Part shown: positions 31,692-37,096 of the stretch, piece after piece
Layout of the letters: each line of letters opens with the position of its first letter
Position numbering within the stretch: position 1 is the stretch's first letter
Source: Bacteroidota bacterium
Lineage (GTDB): Bacteria > Bacteroidota > Bacteroidia > NS11-12g > UBA955
Assembly: GCA_041192805.1 (NCBI GenBank)
Contig: JBEEMF010000011.1
Span: 1,009 to 65,008 of the forward strand
Length of the DNA: 64,000 nucleotides
Direction of reading: 5' to 3'
Notes under the pieces: model-generated
Databases searched by the model: none
What the model saw: only the letters and a program-made list of their open reading frames with translations
Told to the model about the DNA's origin: nothing
Translations under genes and position numbers: made by a program

Positions 31692-33047
31692 TTACTTCAC
31701 CTCACGGATCCAAACTTGTGGAACCGCAGATTCATAATAGAAAATACCCTTATTAGCATCCTTCTCTGATGGGAAGTCCTTCAAGAATACATAGTAACTC
31801 TTGTTACTTGGATCGTAGATCTTGTAGGCAAATATACCCTTCTTATACAAATCTTTGATTTGCTTGTTCGCCTTTGATTCAGCACTGTGTAAACCCGCAA
31901 CCAAATAGAACCCTGGCGATGGCTTAACCTTTTCGATAGGTGGCAATTTGATACCGGAAGTATCCTTACCTGCTCCAAAAGCAACCAAATCTTCTAAACT
32001 TGTAACCGTCACTTCCTTTTTCATTGAAGCACTATTCACATTAGCACCACCTTCTGATTCACCATTTTCATTTTCACCCGAGCTATTCAAATTTGCATCT
32101 CCTTCATCACCATTTGTGCTATTCAAATCAGACCCATTTCGAGACCCGCCGCCCAATGCTGAAAACCCGATATACGTATGAAATTCATGAGAATTACCCA
32201 AAGCAATTCGCTGAGCACCCGTAGGTGTGTTATACGAATACGACACTTTAATATCTGACTGAGGGGCAAATCCAATATTACCACCAATCTGACCAATATC
32301 GTTGCCACCAATACCCATCCAAAACTTATCTTGGTAGTTAAACGATGCGTTATATTGGACTCTATAATAATCAAAATTATATGCAGACACATAAATTGAA
32401 GGCTTCAACAAGATGTCGTTGCCCAAATCAATGTTATACCCAAACAACAAACTCGCTTGCGCTTGCATCTGGTAAGTAGATGTGTAATTGTAATAGATGT
32501 AATCAAATCGTGGCTTACTTAAACGAGAAATCGCAACCCCACCAAACCACTTTTCTCCATTTATAAATGCAGATGCGCGCAAATCAGCACGGGTTACCGG
32601 CGGTGTTAACATCAACGATTTGATAATAGGATCGTTGCCGCTAATGTAAACAGCCTTCGACATATCAAAGTTCTGTGACAACACACCTACACTCATTCCC
32701 AAATTCAAATTGGTAGTGCTCGCAATGGGCAAAGAATAGGCGTACGTTGCATAGGCATTGTGCATTTCAGAGAAACCCACCCTTTCGCGCATATAATACA
32801 AACCATACCCAGTGTTTTTTGACGGCACGGGCATCGCGATGTTCAATACGGTTGTTTGTGGGCTACCTGGAACAGCCGAGAACATTTTGTTATACAACAA
32901 CGTCACATGACCTTGCTCATGAGTATTCATGGCAGCAGGATTAATCATAGAATAATCCATGTAATACTGATCCAATTTCGCTCCCATTTGAGCGCTAACA
33001 CTTCCAATGCACAGAGCAATGGCAGAAATGATGCTAATTTTTTTCAT
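31692..33047 (-). CDS. PorP/SprF-family T9SS outer-membrane protein with low-complexity linker and C-terminal SPOR-like domain
   Basis: 451 aa; the start lies 5 nt after the stop of the type-B adhesin gene. Signal peptide, then the PorP/SprF N-terminal pattern QYYMDYSMINPAAMN...YGLYYMRERVGF. A G/N/S/E-rich linker. The C-terminus GFYLVAGLHSAESKANKQIKDLYKKGIFAYKIYDPSNKSYYVFLKDFPSEKDAN fits the SPOR pattern. Confidence 0.75.
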   Translation of the reverse strand: MKKISIISAIALCIGSVSAQMGAKLDQYYMDYSMINPAAMNTHEQGHVTLLYNKMFSAVPGSPQTTVLNIAMPVPSKNTGYGLYYMRERVGFSEMHNAYATYAYSLPIASTTNLNLGMSVGVLSQNFDMSKAVYISGNDPIIKSLMLTPPVTRADLRASAFINGEKWFGGVAISRLSKPRFDYIYYNYTSTYQMQAQASLLFGYNIDLGNDILLKPSIYVSAYNFDYYRVQYNASFNYQDKFWMGIGGNDIGQIGGNIGFAPQSDIKVSYSYNTPTGAQRIALGNSHEFHTYIGFSALGGGSRNGSDLNSTNGDEGDANLNSSGENENGESEGGANVNSASMKKEVTVTSLEDLVAFGAGKDTSGIKLPPIEKVKPSPGFYLVAGLHSAESKANKQIKDLYKKGIFAYKIYDPSNKSYYVFLKDFPSEKDANKGIFYYESAVPQVWIREVK

Positions 33048-33052
33048 CTGAA

Positions 33053-36000
33053 TTAACGAATTACTTGGATATAACCTCTAAACTCTTCGCCGTTAAAGCG
33101 ATTTTTCATGTAGTAAAAATAAATACCTGGTGGCAGGTCAGTTCCTGAATTATCAACCGCCTTCCAATCATTTAAATAATTGCCGGTATAATAAACCAAT
33201 TTACCCTGACGGTCACTGATGCGTAAGTCGAACAAATATAAATCCGCCAACTCGCTCAAATCCCAGAAATCATTCTGCAAATCACCATTTGGAGTAATCA
33301 AATTCGGAATTCTAACCAACGGAGGATCAACCACAGTAACAAGAACAGAATCATTGTCGTCACAGCCGTTTGAGTCAGTACCAGAAACATAATAGGTACG
33401 CGTAGTTAACGGACGGGCAATAACAGAATCACCATTACCCCTATTCAAAGTAGAACTATCAGTCCACCAATAATTGGTTGCACCAACCGCATGTAAATTC
33501 GCCTTTTTACCTCTGTAAATAGTGGTGTCACGATAAACAATAATATTCGCCATCGGGAAAGCTTTTACTTGTACTGAATCAACGGCAGTACATATACCAG
33601 ACGTCGCTGTTACTTTATACCAACCCTTGCCGTATAATTTCTGCGTACGATTTGTGTCCTTCGCCCCAACCCAACGAATCGTATCTCCCCCACTCGCAGT
33701 AATATCAATTGAGTCGCCCTTACACAACGGCATACTTCCAATAAATGAAAAAGAAACAACTGGCTTTAAGGTAAACGCAAAACTCTGTGTCATTGTATCA
33801 ATACAGCCCTGATCGTCTTCCACTATGTACGAAACTGCATGGGGACCCGCCGTAGAGAAGTACTGCTTCACTGGCGCTTTTCCAATCACAACAGACCCAT
33901 TGATATCCCAAGAATATTTCACCAAAGGACGAGCAGATTTTGAAGCTGTGTCTTTAAAAATAATGGTATCAGGCACGCAGATGCCCTGTTTATAGAAATT
34001 TGCTCTAGGGCTTGGTTTTACAACGAATTGCTGCAAAACACTATCTACACAATTATGGATTGAAACGCCATACAATTTAACTGTATAAACACCAGTGTCT
34101 TTGTAAGAGTGATTGTTCGATGTTGCAGGTGATTCAGTATTCCCATCGCCCCAACTCCATCCGGAATTCAATAACGTGTCATTGACATCAATTCCCACGT
34201 TGAAATTAAATTTGAAATTATTGTATTTGAAACATTGTATTGAATCATTAGGCAACATGGCCTTATCGAGTGAAAATGTCGGATTAGGAATGTAATGCGA
34301 CATTACGATACCCACTGCAGAATCCCTACAACCATGATTCGTTTGAGCGAGCATCACCACATTGTGAATACCCGGAGTAGCAAATAACACTTTTGGATTC
34401 TTTGTAAAAAAGTTAATCGTATTGTCGAATTTCCAACTATAAGTTGTCAATGGCTCTAGACTAAGCACAGTTTGGGTTTTGCGCAGAAATGCAGTAGAAT
34501 CCCCAAAACACTTTTCCGTTACGGTATATCCAGCCGAAGGTTTCGGTTGAACAAAAATCGAAAGTGTATCTGAGCTTATGCAACCAGCATTAGAAATTAC
34601 CGTCAATTTTGACTTGTAAATCCCCGGCAATAAATAGGTATGCTTGGCGCCGTACAATGTGGTATCGTTGCCACCATCACCAAATGTCCAAAAGTATGTA
34701 CCCGCATAATCAGGATTCATAATTTGGGTGTTATCTGTAAAAACGGTTTCTTCACCAATACAAGTAGCACTTTGCGTATAATCAACCAATGGCAGAGGAA
34801 AAGTCCGAACGGGCTTAATGATAGAATCCCTACAAGCACCTTTTTGACCTGCATAGTTTGAATATGAAATCAACTTTACAAAATACAGCCCTGGAGGATT
34901 GTATTTACGTGTAACTGTCTTTGATGTTGATGTTGGCGACCCGTCACCAAAATCCCATTTTCTTGTCGAAATCAAATCAGGCGCTGATACCGTGCTCTGA
35001 TCATCAAATACAACAGACTGACCAAAACAAACATCTTTAGGATCAAAAGCAGGTGCAGGTTTAGCATGAACCACATAATCGAAAGTATCAATCGCAAAAC
35101 AAGCGTTAACAGTTGTCACTCTTAGAATTACCTTGTATCCACCTGGGTTTGTATATGTATGATTAACAATTTTCGACGTTTTGATTGTTGGTGGCGGTCC
35201 ATCACCCAAATTCCAATTCCAACCCGAAATTGTCTCGCCGTTAGCATTAGAAAAGTCAGTAAAAACAGTCTGTTCACCGATACAAACATTGTTTACCGTT
35301 TTTAATATAAAAGGCGTTGTAAATACAGTAACCATCTGAACCCAAGAATCCAAATTCCCGTCGGCATTTAGGATAGTTAAACTAACTCTGTAAGTGCCCC
35401 CGTTTGCATATTTATGTACAGCATTTTTCGTCGTTACCGAGTTCCCTGACGACCCCGCATCACCAAAATTCCATGTATTTGTTAAAATCGCTGAAATACT
35501 CTTGCTGAGATTTGTAAACTTCAATGTGTCTCCAGAACACCTACCAGTCAATTTATAAGACGCAAATGGCTCTTTGCTTCCTAGTATATTTAATCCTGTT
35601 TTTCGTTCTGTGGCTGTAAGTACGATTGTATTTCCCAACGCAAACGTGCCCAAAGTCGACATACTTGTTGTGGCCGTGGTAATCTGACCCTTTCGAATCA
35701 CAGAACCTGTTCCACCATGGTCTTTCCATGTTGCAGTGGCTGTGTAACCCAAAATTCTTAATGTAGAGTTTTCATAGACTCCATCATCCGTTGATATAGA
35801 ATCATACTTGAGTGTAACTACAAAATTGGAACTATTTGAAGCATTAGTAGGCACTGTAGCACCCACGAAATAATTTACCGCCGAATAATTTCGAATACCC
35901 GTAGGTAAAGATCCGTTCCCAGTTGCTTTTCCTTTAAACATTTGAAACACGTAGTATGTCAAATTGCCATTTCCCTTGGAAAAACTCAAACCCACCGGAC

Positions 36001-36544
36001 GATAATCACTACCCGCACCCACTGGGAATGTCAAACTTGTAGAACCATTTGTTAGGCCAATATGCAGCGCCCCATCAATAAAACTCGTTGTACCACCCCC
36101 CGTAAACGTACAGCCACTCAAAGCCCTAAATGCAAGCAGATTAGAACCCACTTGTACAAGACCATCCGTTAGAGTAATTTTGGTCTTTACATTAAATGTC
36201 TTTGGCGCAGAATTCCCATCAACGGTTAAAGTGATACCAGATTTATTCATTGTCAATTGGTCCACCTGAACACTATCTACACTGAACGTCATCGTATAAC
36301 CCACCTGAACTGTTTCGGCATAATAACCGGTGGAAATCATAATAATGTCCGAACCCGACGTTGCAATATTAGCAGCAGCCGTGATTGTTAATTTTGCAGT
36401 TGCAGCACTCAGTCCGTTATTCGCGTCATTACCCGTTTTAGAAACGTAATATGTTGCCCCTGACAGAAACTGAATTGATGCAATCGTAAAAACCGATAAA
36501 ACCAATACCGATTTGAGAAAAGATTGTATAGTAGAAAACTTCAT
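33053..36544 (-). CDS. Large PKD-repeat adhesin-like protein with T9SS type-B C-terminal domain
   Basis: 1163 aa with a signal peptide. At least 7 PKD-like repeats (W.FGDG...H.Y..PG.Y.V.L). The CTD is IPNLITPNGDLQNDFWDL...PPGIYFYYMKN...RGYIQVIR. Confidence 0.85.
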   Translation of the reverse strand: MKFSTIQSFLKSVLVLSVFTIASIQFLSGATYYVSKTGNDANNGLSAATAKLTITAAANIATSGSDIIMISTGYYAETVQVGYTMTFSVDSVQVDQLTMNKSGITLTVDGNSAPKTFNVKTKITLTDGLVQVGSNLLAFRALSGCTFTGGGTTSFIDGALHIGLTNGSTSLTFPVGAGSDYRPVGLSFSKGNGNLTYYVFQMFKGKATGNGSLPTGIRNYSAVNYFVGATVPTNASNSSNFVVTLKYDSISTDDGVYENSTLRILGYTATATWKDHGGTGSVIRKGQITTATTSMSTLGTFALGNTIVLTATERKTGLNILGSKEPFASYKLTGRCSGDTLKFTNLSKSISAILTNTWNFGDAGSSGNSVTTKNAVHKYANGGTYRVSLTILNADGNLDSWVQMVTVFTTPFILKTVNNVCIGEQTVFTDFSNANGETISGWNWNLGDGPPPTIKTSKIVNHTYTNPGGYKVILRVTTVNACFAIDTFDYVVHAKPAPAFDPKDVCFGQSVVFDDQSTVSAPDLISTRKWDFGDGSPTSTSKTVTRKYNPPGLYFVKLISYSNYAGQKGACRDSIIKPVRTFPLPLVDYTQSATCIGEETVFTDNTQIMNPDYAGTYFWTFGDGGNDTTLYGAKHTYLLPGIYKSKLTVISNAGCISSDTLSIFVQPKPSAGYTVTEKCFGDSTAFLRKTQTVLSLEPLTTYSWKFDNTINFFTKNPKVLFATPGIHNVVMLAQTNHGCRDSAVGIVMSHYIPNPTFSLDKAMLPNDSIQCFKYNNFKFNFNVGIDVNDTLLNSGWSWGDGNTESPATSNNHSYKDTGVYTVKLYGVSIHNCVDSVLQQFVVKPSPRANFYKQGICVPDTIIFKDTASKSARPLVKYSWDINGSVVIGKAPVKQYFSTAGPHAVSYIVEDDQGCIDTMTQSFAFTLKPVVSFSFIGSMPLCKGDSIDITASGGDTIRWVGAKDTNRTQKLYGKGWYKVTATSGICTAVDSVQVKAFPMANIIVYRDTTIYRGKKANLHAVGATNYWWTDSSTLNRGNGDSVIARPLTTRTYYVSGTDSNGCDDNDSVLVTVVDPPLVRIPNLITPNGDLQNDFWDLSELADLYLFDLRISDRQGKLVYYTGNYLNDWKAVDNSGTDLPPGIYFYYMKNRFNGEEFRGYIQVIR

Positions 36545-36562
36545 GTGGATGTATGAATATTA

Positions 36563-36570
36563 CAAATTTA
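36563..36570 (-). promoter_or_regulatory. -7 box TAAATTTG upstream of the 1163-aa adhesin gene
   Basis: The minus strand reads cccTTAAATTTGtaatattcatacatccacATG, with 18 nt between the box and ATG 36544. Confidence 0.45.
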
Positions 36571-36576
36571 AGGGTT

Positions 36577-36605
36577 TAGACGCTATTTCTCAGAATTTCG
36601 TTTCC
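36577..36605 (-). promoter_or_regulatory. Possible ECF-like promoter GGAAAC-N17-CGTCTA just upstream of the -7 box
   Basis: The minus strand reads GGAAACgaaattctgagaaatagCGTCTA. It resembles the generic ECF consensus but differs from the TTGCAACCAAT motif. Confidence 0.2.
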
Positions 36606-36648
36606 CCATCCACCCACACTAAATTCAATTGCTGCCTATACCGTACAC

Positions 36649-37035
36649 TTAAAAAGGCAAATCATCATCCTCAAAAGGATTGTTGGCTGCGCTATTCGCA
36701 CCTTGATCGCCTGATGGCATTGCGTCAAAACTCGGAGCACTATTGGTTCCCCCAACGGCACTTCCCGCATTTTGTTTGGCAACATTCCATGCGCGAATAT
36801 CAGTGTACCAGCGGCCATTATACTCTCTACTCTCAACATCAACAGAAATTGTCAAATCCTGACCATCTTGAATATTAAACTTAGAAATTTTGTCGCCCCA
36901 TAGGTTAAAACAAACCTTTTTCGGATACTGGCCAGGGACCTCAATGATGAATTCCTGTTTCTCCCATGTGGTACCATTCTTGGCGTTTCCCGTCTGCTTC
37001 GGCAGAGTCTGAACAATTTTACCTGTAATTTCCAT
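36649..37035 (-). CDS. DUF3127-like small protein with disordered linker and SSB-type acidic C-terminal tip (DDDLPF)
   Basis: 128 aa. MEITGKIVQTLPKQTGNAKNGTTWEKQEFIIEVPGQYPKKVCFNLWGDK...ESREYNGRWYTDIRAWNV (recalled as DUF3127). Then a G/S/A/N-rich tail ending NNPFEDDDLPF. Confidence 0.7.
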   Translation of the reverse strand: MEITGKIVQTLPKQTGNAKNGTTWEKQEFIIEVPGQYPKKVCFNLWGDKISKFNIQDGQDLTISVDVESREYNGRWYTDIRAWNVAKQNAGSAVGGTNSAPSFDAMPSGDQGANSAANNPFEDDDLPF

Positions 37036-37039
37036 ATCG

Positions 37040-37047
37040 CAAATCTA
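37040..37047 (-). promoter_or_regulatory. -7 box TAGATTTG, 4 nt upstream of ATG 37035
   Basis: The minus strand reads TAGATTTG-cgat-ATG. A TTG lies 18 nt upstream of the TA. Confidence 0.5.
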
Positions 37048-37096
37048 TTTTTTTGTTTTCCAATTCAACCTTACTTACACCCGAATTAATCCACAA

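Follow-up and report, generated by a model that had tools for sequence, protein, structure and literature searches.

A DUF3127 protein with a predicted OB fold and an SSB-type C-terminal tip, encoded in addition to the canonical SSB in Bacteroidota

The DUF3127 gene and its surroundings

The analysed window is a stretch of 64,000 nucleotides from a Bacteroidota bacterium (assembly GCA_041192805.1, contig JBEEMF010000011.1), and all coordinates given below are those of the window. On the minus strand, the ORF list and the sequence define a complete coding sequence for a DUF3127 protein of 128 aa (36649..37035), which starts with ATG and is closed by a TAA stop codon at 36649..36651. Three parts follow one another on this strand. 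Residues 1-88 (36772..37035) correspond to a predicted OB-fold core, for which AlphaFold2, Foldseek, the conserved residues and hhalign are the evidence. Residues 89-122 (36670..36771; QNAGSAVGGTNSAPSFDAMPSGDQGANSAANNPFE) form a linker which is predicted to be disordered (pLDDT below 50), contains an internal N-P-F motif and has no conserved column in the family. The last six residues, D-D-D-L-P-F (36652..36669), constitute a tip of the SSB-Ct type, i.e. the docking peptide found at the C-terminus of SSB. The protein ends in ...NNPFEDDDLPF-stop, which closes a Gly/Ser/Ala/Asn/Pro-rich tail of about 35 aa. The original prediction, made from the sequence of the window, had placed the DDDLPF codons at 36652..36669 of a 128-aa ORF, before the stop, and the sequence agrees exactly with this placement. 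The end coordinate given at that time, 37047, is the first base of the TAGATTTG box described below and lies outside the coding sequence, whose limit is 37035. A plus-strand ORF overlapping the DUF3127 gene (36513..36878) is without support and was taken as spurious.

Upstream of the gene, the minus-strand motif TAGATTTG (37040..37047) ends 4 nt before the ATG and fits TAnnTTTG, which we take to be the -7 promoter consensus of Bacteroidota (Bacteroides and Flavobacterium promoters). This candidate -7 box is preceded, 18 nt upstream on the same strand, by a TTG (37066..37068) that may act as a -33 element, an assignment read from the sequence only. Transcripts from such a promoter would be leaderless or nearly so, the argument being only a geometric one. 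The TAnnTTTG box is located at -12 here and in 5 of the 63 other loci, all of them close relatives; in the remaining orthologues, boxes resembling TAnnTTTG lie at -22 to -54. The SOS boxes published for Bacteroidetes (PMC8565304) were not enriched upstream of DUF3127 genes, the values for shuffled sequences being about 1 and 0.3.

The gene is surrounded by co-directional envelope genes. Upstream of it, the minus-strand segment 37097..45254 encodes a TamB-like protein of 1502 aa, a MacB/FtsX-like permease of 422 aa and an outer-membrane barrel of 761 aa resembling TonB-dependent receptors. On the other side (31692..36544, minus strand), a PorP/SprF-family gene of 451 aa comes directly after that of a 1163-aa protein, in which several PKD domains are combined with a CHU_C type IX secretion signal; a T9SS cargo protein and a PorP/SprF partner are a usual pairing. 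The early description of a stand-alone gene amid unrelated envelope functions is in agreement with this arrangement, in which TamB, the MacB/FtsX permease, the TonB-type outer-membrane protein, the PKD/CHU_C cargo and PorP/SprF adjoin. Neither phage nor integrase genes were found flanking the window gene.

The same layout is conserved in a small clade formed by the window and five other loci (L062, L063, L064, L066 and L069), down to about 50% protein identity. In this clade tamB-like, MacB/FtsX-like, TonB-type outer-membrane protein, DUF3127, PKD/CHU_C cargo and PorP/SprF genes are co-directional; the tamB and macB-like pair lies upstream of DUF3127 in all five relatives and the outer-membrane protein gene is absent from L069. 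We read this layout as an inherited gene order and not as a functional unit. When the ORFs around 73 loci were clustered, no conserved neighbour of DUF3127 emerged across the family, the best neighbour family being present at 11 of the 73 loci. The genes found there are unrelated housekeeping ones, for acetyl-CoA synthetase, a class II tRNA synthetase and a MutS-like protein, and no DNA-metabolism gene was conserved as a neighbour among these 73 loci. Since the best neighbour family reaches only 11 of 73 and gene order is kept only in the six-locus clade of the window, no function can be deduced from synteny.

Family, predicted fold and C-terminal tail

The Pfam family PF11325 (DUF3127) matches residues 2-85 of the protein over model positions 1-84 of 85, with a score of 116.6 bits (E 5.7e-34) for a curated gathering cut-off of 27 bits. 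The phage family PHROG 4932 covers the whole protein (residues 1-128 on profile positions 1-117 of 117; E 1.1e-18), and its name, 'single strand DNA binding protein', is an annotation and not a tested function. The SSB family PF00436 (cut-off 26 bits) gave no match to the window protein even at E<=1, whereas the canonical SSB of the same genome scores 114.8 bits on this model. No NCBIfam family and no cold-shock or S1 family of Pfam matched the window protein. A PC4/Whirly-type fold was considered and rejected: the Pfam PC4 match is below threshold (14.5 bits for a cut-off of 25) and the model described below is a clear OB fold. A word-indexed search returned 5162 DUF3127 homologues, and a full scan of 1.84 billion representatives with the HMM yielded 7128 clusters (50% identity, E<=1e-3); the family is very large, and nothing sets the window gene apart in it. 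In the literature we found no study of DUF3127/PF11325 or of its SSB-type tip and no experiment on any DUF3127 protein. The name appears in passing in one paper, in which an overlap between DUF3127 and SSB at the CDD level is mentioned for the SSB of a Pantoea phage (PMC8004638).

An alignment of 61 homologous sequences was used for structure prediction. In the resulting AlphaFold2 model, residues 1-88 have a pLDDT of about 90 and residues 91-128 fall below 50 and are read as disordered. On the basis of this profile, the compact domain of about 85 aa followed by a disordered tail of about 40 aa, as originally proposed, proved right. The core model contains strands at residues 2-10, 14-17, 23-32 and 40-46, a helix at 48-53, and strands at 60-72 and 75-87. 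This confidently predicted core is a five-strand OB fold with one helix, in the classical order of strands 1-3, helix and strands 4-5. In the same alignment, the columns that are invariant, window protein included, are G5, G16, G21, W24, K26, P38, K40, W46, the E68-S-R-E71 stretch, Y77 and T78. The aromatic and basic residues that are invariant or nearly so in the family are W24, K26, Y37, K39, K40, W46, R70, Y72, W76, Y77 and W83.

Comparison of the model with the PDB by Foldseek answered the question of the fold raised with the original prediction: the nearest solved structures of this predicted OB domain are ssDNA-binding OB domains. All the top matches belong to this group and comprise archaeal RPA, many bacterial SSBs and PriB, with TM-scores of 0.58-0.60 (normalised by target) for RPA 2k5v and 3dm3 and E-values of about 2e-3 for PriB 4apv and 1woc. 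These RPA and PriB structures, the best structural matches, are small single ssDNA-binding OB domains, but they share only 10-19% sequence identity with the DUF3127 core. The OB domains of RPA are parts of multi-OB proteins. PriB is an SSB-derived OB dimer that works with PriA and DnaT in replication restart; to our knowledge it has no disordered tail and no SSB-type tip, whereas the DUF3127 protein has both. Against predicted viral structures, phage DUF3127 proteins ranked first, ahead of annotated phage SSBs. Searches of PDB sequences with the single protein and with the family profile found no relative.

At the sequence level, the link to SSB is a distant one. The DUF3127 alignment was compared by hhalign with an alignment of 23 SSBs drawn from the source genome and other Bacteroidota genomes; residues 43-87 were aligned on SSB positions 52-103 with a probability of 74% (E 2.9e-5), a weak match of 45 columns. 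This alignment pairs W46 and Y72 with the aromatic residues of SSB strands 3 and 4, respectively, which we take to be the equivalents of F60 and W88 of E. coli SSB, two of its four DNA-stacking residues. In addition, the PF00436 model gives a sub-threshold score (17.2 bits, E 1.9e-4) on the DUF3127 gene of Cellulophaga phage Nekkels_1. These matches form a weak link, suggesting that the OB core may be remotely related to the OB domain of SSB.

The likeness to the canonical SSB (PF00436; E. coli SSB and the SSB of the source genome) extends to the whole layout: it also comprises an OB core, which in DUF3127 is a predicted one, a low-complexity linker that is intrinsically disordered and, at the end, an acidic tip closed by hydrophobic-Pro-Phe. 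The profile-profile homology between the two is weak and covers strands 3-5, and the DUF3127 core of about 88 aa is about 20-25 aa shorter than the OB domain of the canonical SSB (about 105-115 aa). Three metagenome proteins (P0121, P0122 and P0126) are tandem relatives in which two OB domains are followed by one linker and one DDLPF-type tip. This layout resembles that of Deinococcus-Thermus SSB, which has two OB domains per chain and one tail, whereas the window protein has a single OB domain. By analogy with these tandem relatives, the single-domain form may work as an oligomer; bacterial SSBs as a class assemble so as to offer four OB folds, either in a homotetramer or in a dimer of tandem-OB chains. 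A single-sequence AlphaFold2 model of one tandem protein reached a pLDDT of 31 and was unusable.

The conservation of the tail was analysed on 199 distinct tails collected from database matches and genome loci. Pro-Phe closes 194 of the 199 tails, and at least two acidic residues are present at positions -7 to -4 in 194 of them; Leu is the usual residue at position -3 (162 tails), with Met (12) and Ile (9) after it. All 61 aligned homologues share P127 and F128. Such a regularity exceeds chance by far. The linkers are rich in A, S, G and P, hypervariable and without any conserved column, the median tail length being 37 aa. Because the tip is conserved while the linker is not, the tip is under selection. 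The survey of family tips suggested with the original prediction thus came out in favour of it, as did the other computational checks suggested there: nearly every DUF3127 protein finishes in acidic-[LIM]-P-F. An extra x-P-F motif is present upstream of the tip in 67 of 188 linkers (e.g. DPFA, NPFE, SDIPFDDDDSGLPF), including the N-P-F-E of the window protein (36670..36681, minus strand). From their sequence, these motifs could be degenerate additional docking sites.

Occurrence beside the canonical SSB and in phages

In the order to which the source organism belongs, DUF3127 was found in 170 of 191 genomes and in 117 of the 119 of high quality, almost always as a single copy. In the phylum survey, it is present in 49 of the 50 genomes labelled 'same class' and in 99 of the 201 genomes of the phylum-wide sample. 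Among 14 well-known control genomes, only that of B. thetaiotaomicron carries it. DUF3127 is a vertically inherited single-copy core gene of the order, and its range is centred on Bacteroidota, the other carriers being one clade in Proteobacteria, a single MAG of Gemmatimonadota, and phages.

The proteobacterial loci (L071, L078-L080, L091, L102, L111, L116, L131 and L141) belong to alpha- and gammaproteobacterial genomes, and their carriers include the isolates Lamprobacter modestohalophilus and Thiohalocapsa sp. ML1. These loci are of high GC content, and a Shine-Dalgarno sequence lies upstream of the gene in L116. Two further loci bear proteobacterial labels, L063 ('uncultured Rhizobium sp.') and L115 ('uncultured Limnohabitans sp.'). 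Their DUF3127 copies are nested tightly among those of Bacteroidota, with a GC content of 0.38-0.43 and Bacteroidota-type tips, and the contigs are probably mis-binned.

The source assembly (103 contigs, 1.83 Mb, 76% complete) encodes one canonical SSB of 151 aa, located on a different contig beside a mutY-like gene and ending in ...GGSDVQDEELPF. The comparison of the two C-termini that had been suggested with the original prediction was carried out: the SSB ends in ...DVQDEELPF and the DUF3127 protein in ...FEDDDLPF. PriA, RecQ and RecO are all encoded in the same genome. A canonical SSB was also present in all the DUF3127-bearing cellular genomes checked (40 of 40), i.e. in 29 of 29 Bacteroidota and 11 of 11 non-Bacteroidota. 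DUF3127 is never the sole SSB in these cellular genomes, so it comes in addition to the canonical SSB and not in its place. The genomes of L049-L051, L053, L055, L057, L060 and L061 also contain short SSB paralogues (107-114 aa), which have good PF00436 scores, lack the linker and the tip, and end in ...NEILLLSK or similar. With these short paralogues beside the full-length SSB and DUF3127, some Bacteroidota genomes have three SSB-type genes.

In most of the pairs compared, both DUF3127 and SSB end in LPF. One lineage has DUF3127 tips of the DGDAPF, DGDMPF or NDDCPF type against an SSB ending in KDDLPF. The proteobacterial DUF3127 tips are mostly DDDIPF, DDVIPF or DDNIPF and occur beside SSBs ending in DD[DE]IPF; three Chromatiaceae-type loci have EEPPF or DDLPPF instead. 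In the maximum-likelihood tree, the ten proteobacterial copies form one clade with 97/94 support. Since they form a single clade, the switch from Leu to Ile in the tip amounts to about one evolutionary event. The agreement between the tips and the SSB of the host (LPF with Bacteroidota, IPF with Proteobacteria) is only suggestive of an adaptation of the tip to the pockets of the host partners.

Homologues were detected in 39 phage records, all with Bacteroidota hosts or from gut or faecal samples. Their tips are of the same type: the proteins of Cellulophaga phage Nekkels_1, Flavobacterium phage 11b and Phocaeicola phage PV4-TP1 end in GDDVPF, GDDLPF and KDDLPF, respectively. In Nekkels_1 the gene neighbours an exonuclease, a NinG/Rap endonuclease and a primase-helicase, and in 11b it neighbours the Erf annealing protein; in both, i.e. 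in two of the three phages examined, it lies within a DNA recombination/replication module. In PV4-TP1 it is found among methyltransferase, MmcB repair and excisionase genes. No canonical SSB was found in any of these three phages. The phage SSBs of PHROG 4932 (11b gp57, Nekkels_1 gp85 and those of LoVEphage-like phages of Bacteroides/Phocaeicola) belong to the same family and share the core-linker-tip layout, but they are only 26-38% identical to the window protein over the full length, and the phage copies are on long, separate branches of the tree. The two settings also differ: the three phages examined are without canonical SSB, whereas the window gene is chromosomal, vertically inherited and accompanied by one. 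The position of the phage gene, and the role that it implies, are those expected of a phage SSB. This constitutes the best indirect evidence for a fold that works as an ssDNA binder and for a tip directed at proteins of the host.

Proposed role and competing explanations

In bacteria, SSB acts with its C-terminal tip as an organiser of replication, repair and recombination, the tip being the part that binds RecQ, PriA, RecO, ExoI, chi and other proteins. The DUF3127 protein is probably an accessory mini-SSB, in which the OB core binds ssDNA and the SSB-type tip engages the SSB partner network. In this presumably cytoplasmic protein, the OB domain of about 88 aa would bind ssDNA via its conserved aromatic and basic residues, and the flexible linker of about 35 aa would present the C-terminal acidic-Leu-Pro-Phe peptide. 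The same peptide is presumed to be the docking tip by which the canonical SSB of the lineage addresses enzymes of replication, repair and recombination. Because the docking peptide is the same and PriA, RecQ and RecO are encoded in the genome, the DUF3127 protein may bring such partners to the ssDNA that it coats, or it may compete with SSB for them. The gene would be a stand-alone housekeeping gene working alongside the canonical SSB. In the phages of the same hosts, the homologue would be the phage's own SSB, plugged into the partner network of the host. The analysis establishes the family, the predicted fold, the architecture and conservation of the tail, the distribution and the phage context; the ssDNA binding, the binding of partners by the tip, the oligomeric state and the physiological role are our inference. 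Against the mini-SSB reading speak the failure to match PF00436, the weakness of the hhalign link, the shorter core, the lack of conserved DNA-metabolism neighbours and of SOS-box enrichment, the lineages whose DUF3127 tip departs from that of the host SSB, and the fact that the Leu-to-Ile switch traces to a single clade.

The tip could also act on its own. According to this explanation, the core binds a ligand other than DNA, or nothing, and the protein occupies the SSB-Ct pockets of the partners as a decoy or a regulator, titrating or timing their access to SSB. The coexistence of a canonical SSB in every cellular genome checked is compatible with such a role, as are the rank of the tip as the most conserved short element and a core which is shorter than the OB domain of SSB and fails PF00436. 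However, the core is conserved more strongly than a mere scaffold would need, and it has aromatic and basic residues on the OB face that do not vary, two of them aligned to stacking residues of E. coli SSB. Its fold neighbours are exclusively ssDNA binders, and in the phages it is the only SSB-like protein, near annealing or nuclease genes in two of the three examined; we consider the decoy unlikely. An RNA-binding OB protein, such as a cold-shock or S1-like chaperone, whose PF motif would serve another purpose (e.g. a degradation tag or a motif for a partner unrelated to SSB), appears very improbable. Small OB folds often bind RNA, the gene stands alone with a promoter geometry that suggests a short or absent leader, and synteny with DNA metabolism is absent; yet no cold-shock or S1 family is matched, the fold neighbours are RPA, SSB and PriB and not CspA or S1, the architecture of the tail and the tip match those of the host SSB, and the Nekkels_1 and 11b copies sit in DNA recombination/replication modules.

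The presence of homologues in 39 records of phages of Bacteroidota hosts, and of the family in PHROGs, could alternatively mean that the window gene is a phage SSB gene, domesticated or a mere passenger, without any role in the host and left by a mobile element amid envelope genes. Within the order, however, 117 of the 119 high-quality genomes have the gene as a single copy, it is present in 49 of 50 of the 'same class' set, and the gene order tamB, macB-like, outer-membrane protein, DUF3127, PKD/CHU_C and PorP is kept in the window clade to about 50% identity. With flanks that contain neither phage nor integrase genes and phage copies on long separate branches, we give this explanation very little credence.

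The accessory mini-SSB remains the preferred reading, and it has a more far-reaching version that we hold as tentative and rather doubtful. In that version, DUF3127 would be more than a spare SSB and would serve Bacteroidota as a second, dedicated ssDNA hub with a separate, parallel recruitment channel set by its tip; it could, for example, be the PriB/DnaT-like adaptor that is missing between PriA (or RecO/RecQ) and ssDNA, or the sole remaining SSB in extremely reduced symbionts. We know of no PriB, PriC, DnaT or DnaD in Bacteroidota.

The labelling of phage members as 'SSB' by PHROGs is known already. What is new, and in our judgement likely, is a distinct miniature SSB-type family which the lineage retains throughout as a core gene in addition to the canonical SSB. 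The knowledge of SSB and its tip comes almost wholly from E. coli and a few Firmicutes, and DUF3127 is common across Bacteroidota, gut Bacteroides included. If the proposal is true, Bacteroidota and their phages run an uncharacterised two-SSB system. This would bear on the recruitment of replication restart and recombination mediators in these bacteria, on the access of phages to the host machinery and hence on the portability of recombineering tools, and on the way in which "missing" replication genes are scored in reduced genomes.
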